Of a DNA stretch of 64,000 bases, positions 3,808 through 33,752 are shown piece by piece (position 1 is the stretch's first letter; each line of letters starts with the position of its first letter). Below the pieces are notes generated by a model. It saw only the letters and a list, made by a program, of their open reading frames with translations, made no database searches and had not been told where the DNA came from. Made by a program: the position numbers and the translations under genes. Source of the stretch: Escherichia coli (GTDB taxonomy: Bacteria; Pseudomonadota; Gammaproteobacteria; Enterobacterales; Enterobacteriaceae); assembly GCF_030384885.1 (NCBI RefSeq), contig NZ_CP128613.1. One strand, written 5' to 3'.

Positions 3808-5067
3808 TTATCTTCCCAACCACGGCTGTGGATTGACCGCCTGACCCTGGCGGCGAATTTCGAAATAGAGTGAAGGCCGACCCTGACCGCCACTGCTGCC
3901 CACCAGTGCAATTGGCTGGCCCGCGCGAACCTGCGAACCAACGCTCACCAGTGCGCTCTGATTATAGCCGTAAAGACTCATGTCGCCTTTACCATGCTCA
4001 ACCACCACCACCAGACCGTAGCCTTGCAGCCAGTCAGCCAGAATCACCCGACCGTCGGCAATCGCTTTAACTTCAGTACCTTCAGAAGCACCAATCACCA
4101 TCCCTTTCCAGCGCAGCTCACCCTGTAGCTGTTCACCATAGCGATGCAGCGTCGGCCCGCGAACCGGCCAGAATGCCTGACCACGCGGCGCGCCCAGGCC
4201 ACCAGTTCGGGACATCAGCGATTTTTCGCTTTCGGTCGGTTTGTAGGTGGTGCCTTTGCGCGTCGCTTCTTTCTGACGGTCGCGAACCGCCTGGGCTTCG
4301 CGCGCCTCACGTTCAGCACGCGCTTTCGCTGCCGCTTCCGCACGGGCAATGCTGTTACGCAGACGAGATTCGTTGGCGCGCAGCTCGCTCAACTGTTGTT
4401 GACCTTGCTGGATGGAAGACTCTAGCCCAGCCAGCGTCTTTTTACGCTCGTTCAGCGCCTGGGTCAGCTTCGCCTGTTGGGCGCGCTGCTCATATAACAG
4501 TGTTTGTTGCTCGCTCTGTTTCTCTTCCAGCTCGGCGCGTTGCATAGCGACTTCTTCACGCGTTTGTTTCAACTGAGCAATGGTTTCTTGTCGCGCCTGG
4601 TTGAGATAACCGAAATAAGCCTGTAAACGCTGACCACGCTGGCTTTCTTCACCGCTGAGAATGAGCTGAATACCGGTATGCTCGCCCTGACGAAACGCGG
4701 CATCCAGTTGCGCGGCGAGGCTGCGTTCCTGGGCGGCTTTTTGCTGCTCCAGTTTGGCAATCGATGCGTTCATCTCATCAATCTGTTTATTCAGTTGATT
4801 GAGTGTGTTTTGCGTTTCGCGCAGCTTGCGAGTGGCTTCAGAGATCGCTTCTTCCTGCTTTTTCAATTGTGCGAGCAGGCTTGCGCGTTGTTGTTGCTTT
4901 TGGCGTACCGCGCGCTCTTTCGCGGCGATATCGGCCTGAATAGATTTGAGTTGGTCGCGATCATCCGCGTGGGCGGAAAAGGCGCACAACAATACGCCAG
5001 CGCTAAGAACGCTGGCGTAGATGATAGGCCTGATTGCAAACCTGCGCGGTTTCACGGCCCGTGTCAT
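3808..5067 (-). CDS. envC: Murein hydrolase activator EnvC (coiled-coil plus LytM/M23 domain)
   Basis: Long Q/A/E-rich coiled-coil followed by a C-terminal M23-like domain; start placed at the internal ATG (MTRAVKPRRF..., 419 aa) rather than the ORF-track start. Confidence 0.9.
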   Translation of the reverse strand: MTRAVKPRRFAIRPIIYASVLSAGVLLCAFSAHADDRDQLKSIQADIAAKERAVRQKQQQRASLLAQLKKQEEAISEATRKLRETQNTLNQLNKQIDEMNASIAKLEQQKAAQERSLAAQLDAAFRQGEHTGIQLILSGEESQRGQRLQAYFGYLNQARQETIAQLKQTREEVAMQRAELEEKQSEQQTLLYEQRAQQAKLTQALNERKKTLAGLESSIQQGQQQLSELRANESRLRNSIARAEAAAKARAEREAREAQAVRDRQKEATRKGTTYKPTESEKSLMSRTGGLGAPRGQAFWPVRGPTLHRYGEQLQGELRWKGMVIGASEGTEVKAIADGRVILADWLQGYGLVVVVEHGKGDMSLYGYNQSALVSVGSQVRAGQPIALVGSSGGQGRPSLYFEIRRQGQAVNPQPWLGR

Positions 5068-5100
5068 GGTATTAATCGCCTTTCCCCTCATGGGGAGGGA

Positions 5101-6645
5101 TTATTCCACGATGAACAGCGGCTTACCAGTCATCTCTTGCGGGATTTCCATACCCATCAGCGACAACATGGTCGGCGCGATGTCAGAAAGTTTGCCGCCT
5201 TCAACCGCTTTCACGTTCTTATCGCCAACGTAAATCAGCGGAACAGGCAGGTTGGTGTGCGCTGTGTGCGCCTGACCCGTTGCCGGATCGCGCATCTGTT
5301 CAGCGTTACCGTGGTCAGCGGTGATCAGCAGTTGTCCACCTACAGACTCAACCGCTTTCGCAACTTCATCCACGCAGTGATCCAGCGCTTCAACGGCTTT
5401 AACCGCTGCTTCCATCACCCCGGTGTGACCTACCATGTCGCCGTTAGGATAGTTACAGATGATAGTGTCGTATTTGCCGCTCTTGATGGCCGCAACCAGT
5501 TTTTCGGTCAGCTCTGCGGAGCTCATTTCCGGTTGCAGGTCGTAAGTAGCGACTTTCGGTGAGTTGATCAGAATGCGATCTTCGCCTTTGAACGACTCTT
5601 CTACGCCACCGTTGAAGAAGAAAGTGACGTGGGCATATTTTTCGGTTTCGGAAATACGCAGCTGAGTTTTGTCGTTTTTCGCCATCCACTCGCCGAAGGT
5701 GTTAACCAGAGAAGCTGGCGGGTAAGCAACCGCAGTTTTGATGTCAGCAGCGTATTCGGTCAGCATCACGAAATCGATGTTAACTACTTTCTTACGCGCG
5801 AAGCCGTCGAAATCAGCGTTCACGAAAGCACGAGTGATTTCACGCGCGCGGTCAGCACGGAAGTTCATGAAAATCAGCGCGTCGCCGTCTTCCATTGCCG
5901 CGTCTGGCTGGCCTTCAGCACGGATAACGGTCGCTTTCACGAATTCGTCGTTTTCGTCGCGAGCATAAGCAGCCTGCAAACCGGCAACAGCGGTGTCGGC
6001 CTGGAATTCGCCCTGCGCCAGCGTCAGCAGGTCATACGCTTTTTCAACGCGATCCCAACGATTGTCGCGGTCCATGGCGTAGTAACGACCAATGATGGAC
6101 GCTACGCGGCCTTTGCCCAGCGCGGCAAATTTCTCTTCGAATTTTTTCAGCGAGGATTCAGCACTGCGCGGCGGGGTGTCGCGACCGTCAAGGAATGCGT
6201 GCAGGTAGATTTTTTCTGCGCCGCGTTCCGCTGCCAGTTCTACCATCGCCATGATGTGATCTTCGTGGCTGTGTACACCACCTGCGGACAGCAGACCCAT
6301 AATGTGTACTGCTTTGCCCGCATTTTTCGCTTTATCTACCGCACCAGTCAGCACCGGATTAGCGAAGAAAGCGCGATCTTTGATTTCAACGTCCAGACGA
6401 GTCAGGTCCTGATACACGATGCGGCCGGCACCCAGGTTAACGTGGCCTACTTCGGAGTTACCCATTTGACGGTCAGGCAGACCGACTTCCAGACCGGAAG
6501 CGTCGATCAGGGTATGCGGACGATTGGCCCACAGTGCATCCATTACCGGGGTTTTAGCACTAAAAATGGCGTTATCCTGCTGTTCTTCGCGATAGCCATA
6601 GCCATCCAGAATCACCAGTACCATAGGTTTTTTAGAAACCGACAT
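5101..6645 (-). CDS. gpmM: 2,3-bisphosphoglycerate-independent phosphoglycerate mutase
   Basis: Start placed at [17 protein letters not shown] (514 aa), with a GAGG Shine-Dalgarno 8 nt upstream; the 562 aa track ORF is an upstream in-frame extension. Confidence 0.95.
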
Positions 6646-6889
6646 TGCGACAACCTCATACTCAAGAGTCAAAATTTGCGTAATTTTACTACAGCTGAAT
6701 CGATAAAATAGCCTCTGAAGATCAAAATATACGACCGCTCGCGGCAAGCCGATGCCAGATTTACGCTTTTTTTTCGTAGCGCCCCGCAAAATTGCATTCC
6801 AGTTAACGCGCTGGCTGTATTTGCCGCACCGCGCAGGTATACTCCTTTCCTGGTTTTTTTAATCACTACGTCGGGAGTTGTTACCCCCC

Positions 6890-7321
6890 ATGCAAGAAAT
6901 TATGCAATTTGTTGGCCGTCATCCCATACTGAGTATCGCCTGGATCGCGTTACTGGTGGCGGTTCTTGTGACTACGTTTAAGAGCCTGACCTCGAAAGTG
7001 AAGGTGATTACTCGTGGTGAAGCTACACGTCTGATCAACAAAGAAGACGCTGTGGTTGTGGATTTACGTCAGCGTGATGACTTCCGTAAAGGCCATATCG
7101 CAGGTTCTATCAATCTGTTGCCGAGCGAAATCAAAGCCAATAATGTTGGTGAGCTTGAGAAGCACAAAGACAAGCCGGTTATCGTGGTAGACGGTTCTGG
7201 CATGCAGTGCCAGGAGCCTGCAAACGCGCTGACGAAAGCAGGTTTTGCGCAAGTATTCGTGCTGAAAGAGGGCGTAGCTGGCTGGGCTGGCGAGAACTTG
7301 CCCCTGGTGCGCGGCAAATAA
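6890..7321 (+). CDS. yibN: Rhodanese-domain inner membrane protein
   Basis: 143 aa from ATG at 6890 ([26 protein letters not shown]..., one TM helix then rhodanese-like domain); GGGAG Shine-Dalgarno upstream; the track start at 6878 is a TTG. Confidence 0.85.
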
Positions 7322-7462
7322 TTTACCTGTCGTCTTTCATGATGCAGGCCGTTAGCTGCAATTAGGCCCCCTGAGACTTATTGTTATAAGCTTCTGGGGA
7401 CACTCCATTTTGCTGCCGCCCTGCAACATGAAATTTCAGGGTAAAAAAACAGGAGCTAATTT

Positions 7463-7714
7463 ATGGCCAATGTTGAAATCTATACCAAAGAAACCTGCCC
7501 GTATTGCCATCGTGCGAAAGCACTGCTGAGCAGCAAGGGTGTGAGTTTTCAGGAGTTGCCGATCGATGGCAACGCCGCTAAGCGTGAAGAGATGATCAAA
7601 CGCAGCGGTCGCACCACGGTTCCCCAGATTTTTATTGACGCACAGCACATTGGCGGCTGTGATGACTTGTATGCATTGGATGCACGTGGTGGACTGGATC
7701 CCCTGCTGAAATAA
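7463..7714 (+). CDS. grxC: Glutaredoxin 3
   Basis: 83 aa; CPYC active-site motif ([11 protein letters not shown]). Confidence 0.95.
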
Positions 7715-7776
7715 CGTGTGAACGTTGGCATTACATTGCGCAGTATTTAAGGACAACACTTAAGGGTTTTCGACAC

Positions 7777-8244
7777 ATGTCAGAACAAAACAACACTGAA
7801 ATGACTTTCCAGATCCAACGTATTTATACCAAGGATATCTCTTTCGAAGCGCCGAATGCGCCGCACGTTTTCCAGAAAGATTGGCAGCCAGAAGTTAAAC
7901 TTGATCTGGATACGGCATCTTCTCAACTGGCAGATGACGTTTACGAAGTGGTACTGCGTGTTACCGTAACGGCATCCCTGGGCGAAGAAACTGCGTTCCT
8001 GTGCGAAGTTCAGCAGGGCGGTATTTTCTCCATCGCGGGTATCGAAGGCACCCAGATGGCACATTGCCTGGGCGCGTACTGCCCGAACATTCTGTTCCCG
8101 TATGCTCGTGAGTGCATCACCAGCATGGTATCCCGCGGTACATTCCCGCAACTGAACCTTGCGCCGGTTAACTTCGATGCGCTGTTCATGAACTATTTGC
8201 AGCAGCAGGCTGGCGAAGGTACTGAAGAACATCAGGATGCCTGA
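7777..8244 (+). CDS. secB: Protein-export chaperone SecB
   Basis: 155 aa; [29 protein letters not shown]... recognised as SecB. Confidence 0.95.
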
Positions 8245-9263
8245 TGAACCAACGTAATGCTTCAATGACTGTGATCGGTGCCGGCTCGTACGGCACTGCT
8301 CTTGCCATCACCCTGGCAAGAAATGGCCACGAGGTTGTTCTCTGGGGCCATGACCCTGAACATATCGCGACGCTTGAACGCGACCGCTGTAACGCCGCGT
8401 TTCTCCCCGATGTGCCTTTTCCCGATACGCTCCATCTTGAAAGCGATCTCGCTACCGCACTGGCAGCCAGCCGTAATATTCTTGTCGTCGTGCCAAGCCA
8501 TGTCTTTGGTGAAGTGCTGCGCCAGATTAAACCGCTGATGCGCCCTGATGCGCGTCTGGTGTGGGCGACCAAAGGTCTGGAAGCGGAAACCGGACGTTTG
8601 TTACAGGACGTGGCGCGTGAGGCGTTAGGCGATCAAATTCCGCTGGCGGTTATCTCTGGCCCAACGTTTGCGAAAGAACTGGCGGCAGGTTTACCGACGG
8701 CTATTTCGTTGGCCTCTACCGACCAAACCTTTGCTGATGATCTTCAGCAGTTGCTGCACTGTGGTAAAAGTTTCCGCGTTTACAGCAACCCGGATTTCAT
8801 TGGCGTGCAACTTGGCGGCGCGGTGAAAAACGTCATTGCCATTGGCGCGGGGATGTCCGACGGTATCGGTTTTGGTGCGAATGCGCGTACGGCGCTGATC
8901 ACCCGAGGTCTGGCTGAAATGTCGCGTCTTGGCGCGGCGTTGGGGGCCGATCCTGCCACCTTTATGGGCATGGCGGGGCTGGGTGATCTGGTACTTACCT
9001 GTACCGACAACCAGTCGCGTAACCGCCGTTTTGGCATGATGCTCGGTCAGGGCATGGATGTACAAAGCGCGCAGGAGAAAATTGGTCAGGTGGTGGAAGG
9101 CTACCGCAATACGAAAGAAGTCCGCGAACTGGCGCATCGCTTCGGCGTTGAAATGCCAATAACCGAGGAAATTTATCAAGTATTATATTGCGGAAAAAAC
9201 GCGCGCGAGGCAGCATTGACGTTATTAGGTCGTGCACGCAAGGACGAGCGCAGCAGCCACTAA
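8244..9263 (+). CDS. gpsA: NAD(P)H-dependent glycerol-3-phosphate dehydrogenase
   Basis: 339 aa; N-terminal Rossmann motif [12 protein letters not shown]; start overlaps the secB stop. Confidence 0.95.
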
Positions 9264-9342
9264 ACCCAGGGAACCTTTGTTACCGCTATGACCCGGCCCG
9301 CGCAGAACGGGCCGGTCATTATCTCATCGTGTGGAGTAAGCA

Positions 9343-10164
9343 ATGTCGTGTGAAGAACTGGAAATTGTCTGGAACAATATTAAAGCTGAAGCCAGAACGC
9401 TGGCGGACTGTGAGCCAATGCTGGCCAGTTTTTACCACGCGACGCTACTCAAGCACGAAAACCTGGGCAGTGCACTGAGTTACATGTTGGCGAACAAGCT
9501 GTCATCGCCAATTATGCCTGCCATTGCTATCCGTGAAGTGGTGGAAGAAGCCTACGCCGCCGACCCGGAAATGATCGCTTCTGCGGCCTGTGATATTCAG
9601 GCAGTGCGTACCCGCGACCCGGCAGTCGATAAATACTCAACCCCATTGTTATATCTGAAAGGTTTTCATGCCTTGCAGGCCTATCGCATAGGTCACTGGC
9701 TGTGGAATCAGGGCCGTCGCGCACTGGCTATTTTTCTGCAAAACCAGGTTTCTGTGACGTTCCAGGTGGATATTCATCCGGCGGCAAAAATTGGTCGCGG
9801 TATCATGCTCGACCACGCGACGGGCATTGTGGTGGGTGAAACTGCGGTGATTGAAAATGACGTGTCGATTCTGCAATCCGTTACCCTTGGCGGTACGGGA
9901 AAATCTGGCGGCGACCGTCACCCGAAAATTCGTGAAGGCGTGATGATTGGCGCAGGTGCGAAAATTCTCGGTAATATTGAAGTTGGTCGCGGTGCGAAGA
10001 TTGGCGCAGGTTCCGTGGTGCTGCAACCGGTACCGCCACATACCACCGCCGCTGGCGTTCCGGCACGCATTGTCGGTAAACCAGACAGCGATAAGCCATC
10101 AATGGATATGGATCAGCATTTCAACGGCATTAACCATACGTTTGAATATGGGGATGGGATCTGA
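9343..10164 (+). CDS. cysE: Serine O-acetyltransferase
   Basis: 273 aa; hexapeptide-repeat left-handed beta-helix in the C-terminal half; recognised as CysE. Confidence 0.95.
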   Translation: MSCEELEIVWNNIKAEARTLADCEPMLASFYHATLLKHENLGSALSYMLANKLSSPIMPAIAIREVVEEAYAADPEMIASAACDIQAVRTRDPAVDKYSTPLLYLKGFHALQAYRIGHWLWNQGRRALAIFLQNQVSVTFQVDIHPAAKIGRGIMLDHATGIVVGETAVIENDVSILQSVTLGGTGKSGGDRHPKIREGVMIGAGAKILGNIEVGRGAKIGAGSVVLQPVPPHTTAAGVPARIVGKPDSDKPSMDMDQHFNGINHTFEYGDGI

Positions 10165-27938: not shown

Positions 27939-28395
27939 GGGGGGCGGGGGAGATTATGGAACTTTGCTCCCTGCAAGGACTAATTATTTTTGCATATTAT
28001 TTCATCGGCTGTGATGATTTTTCGTTAATATCCATTATGTTAAGAAGTTCGGGATGAGTGTGAACTCATTGGATTTTTTATCCGTCTTGATCTGCCGAAG
28101 GATCAGACTATACATTGTCGAGATCGCAATGATGATATGAGTTGTTCCTCTGCCACGACTCTAATCAAAAAAGAGCAGGAGTGCTTTTCCATCTATTGCG
28201 ATGATGGCTTTATTATCTGAAGGATGACAATCACATTTAAAAATATATAATTTATAGATCACAATATAGGTTCATGGAATATATGTATACAACTATTTTT
28301 CTCTTCACTTTTAATTATCGCATTCATTATAACACTAAGTTAAAAAAACTCCTGGAGAGTGAGTTATTAATATATTTTTAAATATAATTAAGTTA

Positions 28396-28917
28396 TTATT
28401 CATCGATGCATTTTATAGAATCATCAATGGCTACAATAGTACTATTAACTCTCCAATTTATATTTTTATTATCATTGCAAATATTAACTGAATCTATATC
28501 AATGATTTTTCTATTTTTATCTTTTATTTTATTTACAGTTTCAATGCAATCAGCGACAAGTTGGTGTGGATTTAGATTCTTCAGATATGGTCTTATGATC
28601 TTTCCCTTGCTTAATAAATAGCATGTATAGGATTCGGAAAGTCCAGCATCTATTTTGTACATCATTATTCTAGATAAGGATGTGAGAAATGCCTTGTTAT
28701 CATTAGCAGCCATATATGCCAGTCCGAGTTCAGCCTCTGCGGCTTTACATGAAAAATAGCTAAATGAACACGCTTTTCGTCCCTCTTGGGTACTGGCTGA
28801 TATTAGTGCCCATAATATTGCCTTGTCTGCCAAATCCAACTCTCTCTGAAATTGGTTTACAGTAACTGCATTCGCAGAAATAGAGAAAAAAAGCACAATT
28901 GTTAATAACCTTGCCAT
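28396..28917 (-). CDS. Secreted or periplasmic protein; candidate immunity protein for the orphan Rhs C-terminal toxin
   Basis: 173 aa with cleavable signal peptide (MARLLTIVLFFSISANA); its start codon lies 4 nt after the stop of the orphan rhs-CT ORF, same strand. Confidence 0.45.
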   Translation of the reverse strand: MARLLTIVLFFSISANAVTVNQFQRELDLADKAILWALISASTQEGRKACSFSYFSCKAAEAELGLAYMAANDNKAFLTSLSRIMMYKIDAGLSESYTCYLLSKGKIIRPYLKNLNPHQLVADCIETVNKIKDKNRKIIDIDSVNICNDNKNINWRVNSTIVAIDDSIKCIDE

Positions 28918-28921
28918 ATTT

Positions 28922-30334
28922 CTAGTCCGTCACTGTTAATGTGCTATCTGGCTCTGAAAATATTAGCCCATTTAATTTTTGCATGTCATTAGATGAACCA
29001 GTTATACAACCCTCGGAACAGAATCGAGGTCCTAAAGATGGACCAAAAGCGTTTAAACAACTATGTGTTAAAAATCCATCACGATTATACGTTTCTGTAT
29101 TTGCTGACGGTACTAAACGTATACCATTAGGTTTTCTATTAGTTGCTCCAGGACCATTAACATTCCAGGTCCATACCCCTTGAGGTATTGGGCCTCTATT
29201 TTGTAAGTGTGTACAACCAGGATTATTTTTACATTGCATATTATTACCATTATTACCAGAGGCGACTGAAATAGTAAGCACACCATAAGAATTATCATCA
29301 CTTGGCGTATCTGAAACGCATGAAAGCATACCTAAAGTTATGCTGTATAAACAGGTCGCTAATCCCAACGGGTCAATATCAGTTATCGGATTCAACGGAT
29401 ACTGATAAAAATTCCATCCCCCCTTCAGCCCAATCGGATCCTGAGTGATATACCGCCCCTGCAGCGGGTCATAATAGCGGTGGCGGTTGTAATACAGGCC
29501 GGACTCCTCATCATACTGCTGACCCGGCAGGCGGATGAGCTGCTGCAGCTGGTGCGGGTTCTCTTCATTCAGCAGGTTGCCCCATTCATCATATTCTGCG
29601 TACCACGCTGTTGCCCCTTCCGTGCTGACAAGCGCCAGCGGCAGGCCGCGATGGTCGCAGTGGTACAGGTGGATTTTTCGCGCCGGCGTGTACACCGGGT
29701 CCATCTGGTTTTGCATCTGCTCCACCGTCAGGCCGCACGATGCCAGCCAGCGGCGGCTTTCCTCACTCACCCGGTCAGCCAGGATTTCACTTTCCAGCCG
29801 GTCGAGCATCTGCACCAGCACCGGCGGGAACACCACATGGCCTCCGTCTTCGCCGCCGGACTGCTGAAGGGCATCCGCCAGGCTGCGGCGCTGCGTTTTC
29901 GCCAGCTCACCGGTGGCGGTTTCGACCCTGATGAGTGGCGTGAAACTTCCCGGCAGGTATACCGTCTGGATGCGGGTTCTGTCGTTCTGTATCGTGGTCA
30001 GCCGGTCGCCATCCCAGCCGTACCAGGTCACTTCCGGTTTCCTTGACAGCGACATCCAGCCCGTCAGGTCCCGTTCACGCCGCCACACCCGTTTTGCCAC
30101 CCTGCGGCCCAGCGGGTCGTAAAGATAGCGACTTTCGACCAGCGGCTCTGCATATTGTGTCCGCGTGTAGTGCACCAGCCGGTGCCGGCTGTCGTAATGG
30201 TACCGGTGAGTCCGCTCATCATCCGTGCGGATAACCCCTTCCGGGATGAGGTCGGTTTTCTCCGTCAGCCTGCCGTGACGGTCATACCGGTAAAGATAGT
30301 GCGCGTCACGGGCGATACGGTTATCCGGCCACAT
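28922..30334 (-). CDS. Orphan rhs 3' fragment: distal Rhs core followed by an alternative C-terminal toxin domain
   Basis: 470 aa; the first ~325 aa are nearly identical to the distal core of the rhs gene at 30774-32915 up to the DPxGL boundary ([30 protein letters not shown]); the remaining ~145 aa are unrelated to the main gene. Confidence 0.75.
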
Positions 30335-30410
30335 GCTGAGGGTGCTGTCCGGGTGCAGCTCCGGGTCGGGCAGGCGGTTACCTGCCGGGTCTGTTGCATA
30401 CGGGATATCA
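29386..30410. repeat. Direct repeat copy A (~1.0 kb) of the rhs distal core
   Basis: Identical spurious plus-strand ORFs in the track at 29480 and 31347 (also 29535/31402, 29740/31607, 29913/31780, 30043/31910) give a constant 1867-bp offset; homology ends where the DPxGL-encoding sequence ends. Confidence 0.85.
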
Positions 30411-30447
30411 ATGCCCAGGTTACATATAATAATAAGAGCAATTAACT

Positions 30448-30774
30448 TTATTTATTTATAATGCGCTTACTTAATACAAACCATTGAATATACCCTCCTG
30501 ACAGAAAATAAAGCCATATTATTATCGCCATAATATACTTGCTATCAATTCTTACGCCAATAATGTCTGAAATACTCCCTATAAATATTAGAGCAATAAA
30601 GAATACTATGCCTGTTGGAAAACATATTACCATCATTCCATAAGACATGAGACTAATTAACTCGCTCACATCACGAGTGGAGTCTAATAGTGAAAGTCTA
30701 TGCATGGAAAAGAATAGCATTAAAAGTGATAACGCCAGCCATATAGCTCTGAATGAAAAAATAATATATTTCAT
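30448..30774 (-). CDS. Small three-helix membrane protein; candidate immunity protein for the main Rhs C-terminal toxin
   Basis: 108 aa, three hydrophobic segments; start codon overlaps the rhs stop by 1 nt (TAATG), same strand. Confidence 0.45.
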
Positions 30775-32915
30775 TACATCACTCCGGTGAATACAAATCT
30801 AATAAAACGTCCAATGTTATTTCCGGAGCACTTCATCTTACATGTTTCTAAAGAATCATTAGACCAGTCTTGGCAGTTTTTAAATAGCCCTAAATTTATA
30901 GGTGTGAATATATCAGGCAATACAGAATAACGCGGCCTTACCTCTTTAAATTTCCCTTTTAAACAGTTCTCCACACAACTATTATCGGTTTCAACGAGGT
31001 CACAACGGCCAGCAGCTTCTTTTGTATCATTACTTGCTTTACCTGGCCCCCATAGACCATCTCCTTTTGATTCTCCCCGTTGGTCTTGGCCACCACAAGT
31101 ATAGTCCCCTTTACCATCTGGGACACAAAGATATTGATGATAGAACGGATTCCCCCATATATCTGGACCGCTTCTTTCACCAGTTCCGCCCATTGAATGC
31201 AGTGGCTTAATGCATTTTAGTGTTTCTAATCCTAATGGATCTATATTTGAGATCGGATTCAACGGATACTGATAAAAATTCCATCCCCCCTTCAGCCCAA
31301 TCGGATCCTGAGTGATATACCGCCCCTGCAGCGGGTCATAATAGCGGTGGCGGTTGTAATACAGGCCGGACTCCTCATCATACTGCTGACCCGGCAGGCG
31401 GATGAGCTGCTGCAGCTGGTGCGGGTTCTCTTCATTCAGCAGGTTGCCCCATTCATCATATTCTGCGTACCACGCTGTTGCCCCTTCCGTGCTGACAAGC
31501 GCCAGCGGCAGGCCGCGATGGTCGCAGTGGTACAGGTGGATTTTTCGCGCCGGCGTGTACACCGGGTCCATCTGGTTTTGCATCTGCTCCACCGTCAGGC
31601 CGCACGATGCCAGCCAGCGGCGGCTTTCCTCACTCACCCGGTCAGCCAGGATTTCACTTTCCAGCCGGTCGAGCATCTGCACCAGCACCGGCGGGAACAC
31701 CACATGGCCTCCGTCTTCGCCGCCGGACTGCTGAAGGGCATCCGCCAGGCTGCGGCGCTGCGTTTTCGCCAGCTCACCGGTGGCGGTTTCGACCCTGATG
31801 AGTGGCGTGAAACTTCCCGGCAGGTATACCGTCTGGATGCGGGTTCTGTCGTTCTGTATCGTGGTCAGCCGGTCGCCATCCCAGCCGTACCAGGTCACTT
31901 CCGGTTTCCTTGACAGCGACATCCAGCCCGTCAGGTCCCGTTCACGCCGCCACACCCGTTTTGCCACCCTGCGGCCCAGCGGGTCGTAAAGATAGCGACT
32001 TTCGACCAGCGGCTCTGCATATTGTGTCCGCGTGTAGTGCACCAGCCGGTGCCGGCTGTCGTAATGGTACCGGTGAGTCCGCTCATCATCCGTGCGGATA
32101 ACCCCTTCCGGGATGAGGTCGGTTTTCTCCGTCAGCCTGCCGTGACGGTCATACCGGTAAAGATAGTGCGCGTCACGTGTTATACGGTTATCCGGCCACA
32201 TGCTGAGGGTGCTGTCCGGGTGCAGCTCCGGGTCAGGCAGGCGGTTACCTGCCGGGTCCGTGGCATACGGGATGCGGATATCCAGATTTGAGGTGGTGGT
32301 GTGGACGCCGGTCAGCCTGCCGGTGGTGCTGTAGCTGTAACTCCGGGTCTGGCGCGGGCTGCTGATGCGGATGAGTTCGCCGTTGTCGTTCCAGGTGTAA
32401 TCGCGGTCATACTGCAGGCTGTTCAGGTGCTGGCTCTGTAACTGCCCGGCAGGGGTATAAGCGGTGGTGAGTTCATAACGGCCGAAGCTGCGCAGCGTTT
32501 CCCGGTGCAGGCGGTCGCGGGTGAAATCCACCAGCGGTGTGTCGCCGAGTTTCATCCCTGCCAGGTAACCACTGCCATAAGTCAGCCATTCCACGGCGGG
32601 CAGGCTGTCCGGTATACAGCGGTTCGCCAGCCCCTGCGCGTTGTACGCATGTCTGGTTTCATGCTGCCAGAGCAGTTCATTCGTCTGCGGGTGATGCACC
32701 GTCTGGCGCTCACCGGTCAGGGCAAGGTCGGTTTCGCCGGGAAGGACCTTTGCACCGAGCAACGGATTGACCGGATGACCGGACGTCACCCCGCCGGGGC
32801 ACACCGAACAGGCCACGCTGGTGGGGGCACCAATACGTACCCCGGCTGAACCCTGAACAATGCTACCGCCATACTGCGTCATGTCGCCCTGACGCGCCGC
32901 CGGTTTTCCGCTCAT
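30774..32915 (-). CDS. Rhs-family polymorphic toxin, short form: PAAR-type N-terminus, distal YD-repeat core, DPxGL boundary, cysteine-rich C-terminal domain
   Basis: 713 aa; [22 protein letters not shown]... (literal PAAR motif); YD repeats ([46 protein letters not shown]); conserved core end PxxxxDPxGL; AAGGA Shine-Dalgarno before the ATG at 32915. Confidence 0.8.
31253..32277. repeat. Direct repeat copy B (~1.0 kb) of the rhs distal core
   Basis: Partner of 29386-30410; see that entry. Confidence 0.85.
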
Positions 32916-33143
32916 CTGCTCATCCTTGTTTTATCGGGTTATTTGTCTGCTGACAGGCGAAACCCTACAGATTTATAAGAAAGCCTTAAGTGAGATATCT
33001 GTCAGATAAGAACAATTAGGAAAATATTTATATCACCATGATAAATATGTGATTTATTGGGAGGTAACAAACCATCAACATTTTCTGCCCTTTTTCCCAT
33101 CACCAGGCCATACTGATATTTTTCCTCGCACAAAGGACTCGGC

Positions 33144-33752
33144 ATGAAACTCGTCGGTAGCTACACCAGCCCGTTTGTACGCAAACTTTCTATTCTGTTG
33201 TTAGAAAAGGGCATAACTTTCGAATTTATTAATGAACTGCCCTATAACGCGGACAACGGCGTGGCGCAATTTAACCCGTTAGGGAAAGTGCCGGTGCTGG
33301 TGACTGAAGAGGGCGAATGTTGGTTTGATTCGCCGATCATCGCTGAATATATTGAATTAATGAATGTCGCTCCGGCGATGTTGCCGCGCGATCCGCTGGA
33401 GTCGTTGCGAGTGCGCAAAATTGAGGCGCTGGCGGATGGCATTATGGATGCCGGGCTGGTATCGGTGCGTGAACAGGCACGTCCGGCGGCGCAGCAGTCT
33501 GAAGATGAATTGTTACGCCAGCGGGAGAAAATCAACCGCAGTCTGGATGTGCTGGAAGGATATCTGGTCGATGGCACGCTCAAAACCGATATGGTCAACC
33601 TGGCGACTATCGCCATTGCCTGTGCCGTCGGATATCTCAATTTCCGCCGCGTTGCGCCAGGCTGGTGTGTCGACCGCCCACACTTAGTCAAACTGGTCGA
33701 AAACCTGTTTAGCCGCGAAAGTTTTGCCCGCACCGAACCGCCAAAGGCTTGA
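33144..33752 (+). CDS. yibF: Glutathione S-transferase family protein
   Basis: 202 aa; GST N- and C-terminal domain layout; divergent from the rhs gene. Confidence 0.9.

Follow-up and report, generated by a model that had tools for sequence, protein, structure and literature searches.

The 64,000-nucleotide stretch of Escherichia coli DNA analysed here (contig NZ_CP128613.1; hereafter the window) covers the chromosome around selAB-yibF-rhs-yibH-yibI-mtlADR, in reverse orientation. Its minus strand carries, in order, a PAAR-rhs gene, a ybfB-like open reading frame (ORF), an orphan rhs ORF, and an ORF of 173 amino acids (aa), after which yibH follows on the opposite strand. We consider it likely that the orphan ends in a variable Rhs tip carrying a Tlde1-family toxin, that the 173-aa ORF is the Imm57 immunity gene belonging to it, and that the two form a toxin-immunity module at the yibF-rhs-yibH locus. 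Strain 6409, from which the gene names were taken, is 100% identical to the window over positions 28396–29400 and ~99.7% identical over 28001–33300, a deletion in the main rhs gene excepted. The features discussed below are:

28922–30334, minus strand: orphan rhs ORF, 470 aa; the called start is an internal ATG at 30334.
29359–30406, minus strand: orphan rhs core fragment (3′ part of the RHS core), defined by homology to the main rhs core.
29360–29374, minus strand: DPLGL motif, aa 321–325 of the orphan ORF, at the boundary between core and variable tip.
28925–29359, minus strand: toxin tip, 145 aa (aa 326–470), a Tlde1/DUF2778-type domain of predicted L,D-transpeptidase fold; its stop codon TAG is at 28922–28924.
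29063–29065, minus strand: codon of His424 (H99 in tip numbering), predicted catalytic and invariant in a 51-sequence alignment.
29006–29008, minus strand: codon of Cys443 (C118 in tip numbering), predicted catalytic, within S-E-G-C-I and invariant in the same alignment.
28396–28917, minus strand: Imm57-family immunity gene, 173 aa (Pfam PF15596).
28867–28917, minus strand: predicted Sec signal peptide of the 173-aa protein, aa 1–17, called from sequence features.
30774–32915, minus strand: main PAAR-rhs gene, 713 aa, the orphan's presumed partner in recombination.
30448–30774, minus strand: ybfB-like ORF, 108 aa, membrane, between the main rhs gene and the orphan.

The orphan ORF matches the NCBIfam RHS_core model over profile positions 937–1261 of 1261, is also matched by TIGR03696, and is recognized by Pfam RHS at E=3.2e-16. 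Beginning as it does at core position 937, it lacks both the PAAR domain and the N-terminal YD shell. The orphan core and the equivalent part of the main rhs core (31226–32273, approximate) constitute a direct repeat of 1048 bp with 98.7% identity, and the DNA homology between the two stops exactly at the DPLGL codons. Going by what is established for Rhs proteins, we take DPLGL to be the site of C-terminal autoproteolysis; among homologues of other genera DPxGL is likewise conserved directly before the toxin domain. The guanine-plus-cytosine (GC) content is 60% for the rhs core but drops to 38% for the tip and to 33.5% for the immunity gene, as is typical of variable Rhs tips and the immunity genes that go with them. 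The orphan therefore displays what characterizes an Rhs polymorphic toxin, namely an RHS core ending in PxxxxDPxGL, a variable tip, and a break in composition. An orphan Rhs tip with a His/Cys motif had been proposed in a first-pass annotation of this DNA; it is indeed present, on the minus strand, and the upper coordinate given for it (29385) falls just upstream of the DPLGL motif.

The family of the tip is indicated by a match to Pfam Tlde1_dom (PF10908), a family of type VI L,D-transpeptidase effectors, over aa 366–450, with E=4.6e-6 for the whole ORF and 3.5e-7 for the tip alone. When 1.84 billion representative proteins were searched exhaustively (cut-off E≤0.001), 177 homologues were recovered, in which the domain is always found at the extreme C-terminus, directly after DPxGL; the carriers include full-length Rhs proteins of 1378–1570 aa. 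A word-indexed search returned only 22 homologues, mostly fragmentary, and the full-length Rhs carriers needed the exhaustive search. The alignment used throughout comprises 51 sequences (37 Rhs-linked tips and 14 standalone Tlde1-like proteins), 42 of which match Tlde1_dom at E≤0.001. NCBIfam holds no model that matches either the tip or the immunity protein.

The His/Cys motif occupies aa 422–446 (window 28997–29071). The first-pass annotation had likened it to the YkuD/L,D-transpeptidase active site, and the alignment upholds this: His424 and Cys443, 19 residues apart, are invariant in all 51 homologues. In tip numbering the invariant residues are G35, G56, P57, L82, H99, S115, G117, and C118. 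[quoted passage not shown] The full canonical YkuD motif, H-x(14-17)-(S/T)-H-G-C-h, is not present, the tip having S-E-G-C-I in its place. The YkuD profile (PF03734) leaves the window tip unmatched, and reaches one of the 51 homologues at E≤0.001 and nine at E≤0.1.

An AlphaFold2 model of the tip, built with the 51-homologue alignment, has a pLDDT of 93.8 and a pTM of 0.89. Fold recognition against YkuD-fold proteins, which the first-pass annotation had named as the check on its proposal, was positive: when the model was compared to the PDB using Foldseek, the top-50 matches were all L,D-transpeptidase-fold structures. A fold unrelated to YkuD, which would have spoken against the proposal, is not what the model reveals. 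The profile of the 51 homologues, run against PDB sequences, gave seven matches, all of them L,D-transpeptidases aligned on the catalytic motif; in these weak matches the Cys site of the tip aligns with the SHGCI/SKGCI of the solved enzymes and its His with that of the YkuD motif. We assign the tip to the Tlde1/DUF2778 family of toxin domains, with a modeled L,D-transpeptidase (YkuD-like) fold.

Within this family the tip belongs to a cysteine-rich, Rhs-associated subgroup. Six non-catalytic Cys residues, at tip positions 3, 14, 43, 49, 101, and 114, are all present in 36 of the 37 Rhs-linked tips and all absent from 13 of the 14 standalone relatives. Their distribution suggests that they may form three disulfides, which would fit an action in the periplasm.

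The ATG of the 173-aa ORF lies exactly 4 nt after the TAG of the toxin, just as the first-pass annotation had it. The protein matches Pfam Imm57 (PF15596) at E=3.7e-44 over aa 30–127, and the toxin is followed directly by an Imm57 gene in the window, in a metagenomic locus encoding a 1385-aa Rhs protein, in a Ralstonia orphan, and in E. coli Ec73552. According to Zhang et al. 2012, the immunity families for the Tox-LD-peptidase domain are Imm16 and Imm57, and its contexts include RHS repeats and T6SS. The N-terminus of the window protein reads MARLLTIVLFFSISANA and continues beyond the predicted cleavage point with VT; its n-region is basic, the core that follows is hydrophobic (mean Kyte-Doolittle value of 2.87 across 10 residues), and the site is A-N-A. 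All four Imm57 proteins compared (25–52% identity), the other three being divergent homologues, begin in this way, with a basic residue, then a hydrophobic stretch, then an AXA-like site, and the signal peptide claimed for the partner can stand as a prediction. The mature parts of the four share six invariant Cys residues. On these sequence features we infer, with good support, that Imm57 is exported to the periplasm. An AlphaFold2 model of Imm57, derived from only four sequences (pLDDT 79), is all-alpha and has no significant match among PDB folds (best E=0.67). The pairing of an L,D-transpeptidase-fold toxin with a partner, as envisaged in the first pass, thus takes the form of Tlde1_dom with Imm57; by analogy with Tlde1a the tip would be an active enzyme and toxic in the periplasm.

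The module is found in 3690 of 5426 complete E. coli genomes. Its identity to the window copy is at least 99% in 239 carriers, 95–99% in 61, 90–95% in 1983, and 80–90% in 1407. E. coli Ec73552 possesses a natural full-length version, a PAAR-Rhs protein of 1392 aa at the same locus (4301–8479 of its locus), the tip of which is 100% identical to the 145 aa of the window; Imm57 follows 4 nt downstream, and neither ybfB nor a second core copy lies between. Recombination across the core repeat would be expected to give just such a layout. The equivalents in K-12 MG1655 are yibW/yibV/yibU (8640–10147 of its locus), and those in O157:H7 are at 1386–2496. In these two strains, the ones examined for the ~90% allele, 1-bp indels disrupt the toxin and the immunity gene alike; yibV, a K-12 gene that has received little study, is thus a truncated Imm57. 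One module is thus met in four states within a single species: deployable (Ec73552), an intact orphan (window), an orphan behind a crippled main gene (also the window), and a frameshifted remnant (K-12 and O157:H7).

In strain CFSAN061771 (5790–7479 of its locus) an ISAs1 transposase, which has taken away most of the orphan core, lies immediately upstream of the tip. PGAP, which calls such a gene in some strains, names the remaining tip as a separate 135-aa “tlde1 domain-containing protein.” We do not accept it as a separately translated protein, since its start is an internal Met behind the ISAs1-truncated core and it has no signal peptide.

The general route taken by other Rhs effectors is that the PAAR-Rhs protein rides on the T6SS spike with its tip inside the YD shell, and that the tip is released by cleavage at DPxGL. 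The most likely mechanism for the present tip, modeled on Tlde1a, is as follows. In a full-length PAAR-Rhs protein such as that of Ec73552, the tip would lie within the Rhs shell, be severed after DPLGL, and be injected by the T6SS into a neighboring cell. In the periplasm of the target it would trim tetrapeptide stems (mDAP3-D-Ala4) and/or swap D-Ala4 for other D-amino acids; cross-linking would thereby be starved, leading to failure of division and lysis. The adjacent Imm57, exported to the periplasm, would block the toxin in sibling cells. The orphan would represent a silent reserve, which recombination across the 1-kb core repeat could move onto the main rhs gene. The model for these steps, Tlde1a, is toxic only in the periplasm and requires H121 and C131 (Sibinelli-Sousa et al. 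2020); it cuts tetrapeptide stems at the mDAP3-D-Ala4 bond and also puts other D-amino acids in the place of D-Ala4. From its sequence, the tip appears to have the His and the S-x-G-C of Tlde1a and, as far as spacing indicates, also the Arg and Gly that belong to its pocket for D-amino acids.

The main rhs gene of the window is not in the state that such delivery would call for. Comparison with rhsC of strain 6409 (BLAST) reveals an in-frame loss of 2052 bp (684 codons) in the YD-repeat shell: the two proteins agree fully over the first 66 aa and over the last 582, and the window protein is short of 684 aa. The junction is at window 32713–32721, between short imperfect repeats (CCTGxCCGG), and was found intact in none of the 5426 complete E. 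coli genomes searched. The deletion is either specific to this strain or an assembly artefact. The orphan, devoid of PAAR and N-terminal shell, cannot be delivered as it stands and, since the main gene has lost 684 codons, all that the locus is likely to provide now is immunity; the window strain probably draws no other value from it.

A number of observations weigh against the explanation given here of the tip as a Tlde1-family toxin with its immunity gene. The Pfam Tlde1_dom match is partial (model positions 10–100 of 120) and modest, and where the canonical (S/T)HGC motif has its second His, the tip has Glu441. The PDB sequence-profile matches are not significant (E=0.33–1.4), and searching the PDB by sequence did not recover 7UMA, the structure of Tlde1a itself. 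A 2026 survey gives the cytoplasm as the usual place of action for PAAR-Rhs tips. The 64-kb window contains no T6SS genes, the cassette lacks a module for delivery, and the main rhs gene carries the deletion described. Both strains examined for the ~90% allele have it in frameshifted form and, as most carriers are of this class, selection would seem to be weak. The searched literature contained no experiments on, or structural characterization of, the Rhs-linked Tlde1 subgroup or Imm57.

His and Cys are separated by 19 residues in the tip and by 10 in Tlde1a, and the substrate or reaction may therefore differ; this too counts against a strictly Tlde1a-like action. The fold might be the same and the bond another, the tip being an amidase or peptidase on a different periplasmic substrate (e.g., the Lpp-peptidoglycan link, as for DpaA/LdtF) or a general thiol peptidase. 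With the catalytic residues and the putative D-amino-acid pocket of Tlde1a apparently kept, we regard this as unlikely.

It is similarly improbable that the tip and the Imm57 gene are a functionless relic, neither expressed nor selected, the frames of which merely have not yet been broken. That the commonest class among the 3690 carriers is the ~90% allele, with indels in both genes in O157:H7 and K-12, is what a relic would lead one to expect, and the orphan without a delivery module beside a deleted main gene fits it as well; promoter-like sites, moreover, are not enriched in a promoter/terminator scan (11 found vs 8.0 ± 2.4 expected, which is chance level). However, both frames are intact over 318 codons of DNA of 33–38% GC, where stop codons arise easily, and every family-invariant residue has been kept. 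The identical allele occurs in Ec73552 on a full-length Rhs protein in active configuration, and an intact immunity gene would be useful against Ec73552-like neighbors. Lastly, a chance resemblance of the His/Cys pattern in an unrelated Rhs tip, for which it could be said that the first-pass proposal was based on a short motif only and that phmmer with the tip against PDB sequences gave nothing relevant (chance matches, to gelation factor), is dismissed as having next to no probability given the Tlde1_dom E-values, the confident AlphaFold2 model, and the invariance of His and Cys in the 51 homologues.

If the tip is a Tlde1-family toxin, its Cys residues invite a further, tentative suggestion, which we put forward as possible though on balance doubtful. 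The Rhs-linked Tlde1 tips, with three extra Cys pairs and a longer His-Cys loop, may be a distinct subgroup adapted to delivery by Rhs: the tip would leave the shell unfolded and fold only once its disulfides are formed by oxidation in the periplasm of the victim, so that toxicity would depend on the DsbA/DsbB of the target. It would then be harmless in the reducing cytoplasm of its producer, and orphan copies could for that reason be kept at no cost. Were this true, the tip would offer an experimentally tractable example of an Rhs toxin acting in the periplasm, in a class usually assumed to be cytoplasmic.

Two neighboring ORFs complete the locus. The ybfB-like ORF contains hydrophobic segments, overlaps the stop codon of the main rhs gene by one base, and is identical in position to the gene annotated as ybfB in strain 6409; an NCBIfam search with it gave no match. 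Presumably it is a membrane immunity protein for the RhsC-type tip of the main gene. On the mtl/yibL side of the locus, also on the minus strand, lies an ORF of 1675 aa (window 14828–19855); at this position strain 6409 has a gene whose annotation is YadA-like family protein, a trimeric autotransporter adhesin.

By comparison with known systems, the tip shares only 19% identity with Tlde1a, which is a free-standing cargo effector, whereas the window domain is the C-terminal tip of an Rhs protein. Apart from the difference in His-Cys spacing, the motif is SEGC in the tip and SHGC in Tlde1a, and the tip possesses six extra conserved Cys residues. The immunity partners are unrelated, being the all-alpha Imm57 in the one case and Tldi1a (DUF2195) in the other. 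The periplasmic LD-carboxypeptidases Csd6 of H. pylori and Pgp2 of C. jejuni, and L,D-transpeptidases such as LdtMt2, are housekeeping enzymes of cell shape and cross-linking with extra domains; unlike the tip, none of them is a toxin or is paired with an immunity protein.

Among E. coli copies the closest counterpart is that of Ec73552 (WP_392711716.1 with Imm57 WP_000113245.1), which has the same tip at the same yibF-yibH locus but in deployable form, on a complete PAAR-Rhs protein. K-12 yibW/yibV/yibU represent the same module at the same place with ~90% DNA identity, yibV being annotated with PF15596 (Imm57); the K-12 copies are broken by deletions in addition to the 1-bp indels, whereas the window copy is intact.

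The first-pass annotation was not aware of an Rhs-linked L,D-transpeptidase-fold toxin, and on this point it has to be corrected. Tox-LD-peptidase on RHS proteins with Imm57 was predicted by Zhang et al. 2012. Sibinelli-Sousa et al. 2020 (bioRxiv), who cite that prediction of Imm57, describe DUF2778 at the C-terminus of Rhs proteins, with an example from Shigella sonnei, and report the fusion in 387 of 3510 genomes of the Tae7 (later Tlde1c) family. PGAP already labels the two proteins “tlde1 domain-containing protein” and “Imm57 family immunity protein.” In family, architecture, and annotation alike the module is therefore known already, and its meaning beyond correct annotation is slight: this Rhs tip would be a cell-wall enzyme at work in the periplasm where most others are cytoplasmic, a minority case and not a new one. 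The Rhs-linked, cysteine-rich Tlde1 subgroup with Imm57 is a reasonable, if unsurprising, target for bench work.

The nearest relatives as a group are the Rhs-DUF2778 fusions (Tae7/Tlde1c subfamily; Shigella sonnei WP_052983304.1) and Tox-LD-peptidase, a group known by comparative genomics only. These have the same layout of RHS core, LD-peptidase tip, and Imm57; like the window module they occur in Enterobacteriaceae, with delivery by T6SS predicted. The window copy differs from the Rhs-DUF2778 fusions in being an orphan without PAAR and N-terminal shell. On this shared layout, rather than on a direct comparison with WP_052983304.1, the window module is very probably a member of the Rhs-DUF2778/Tox-LD-peptidase group.

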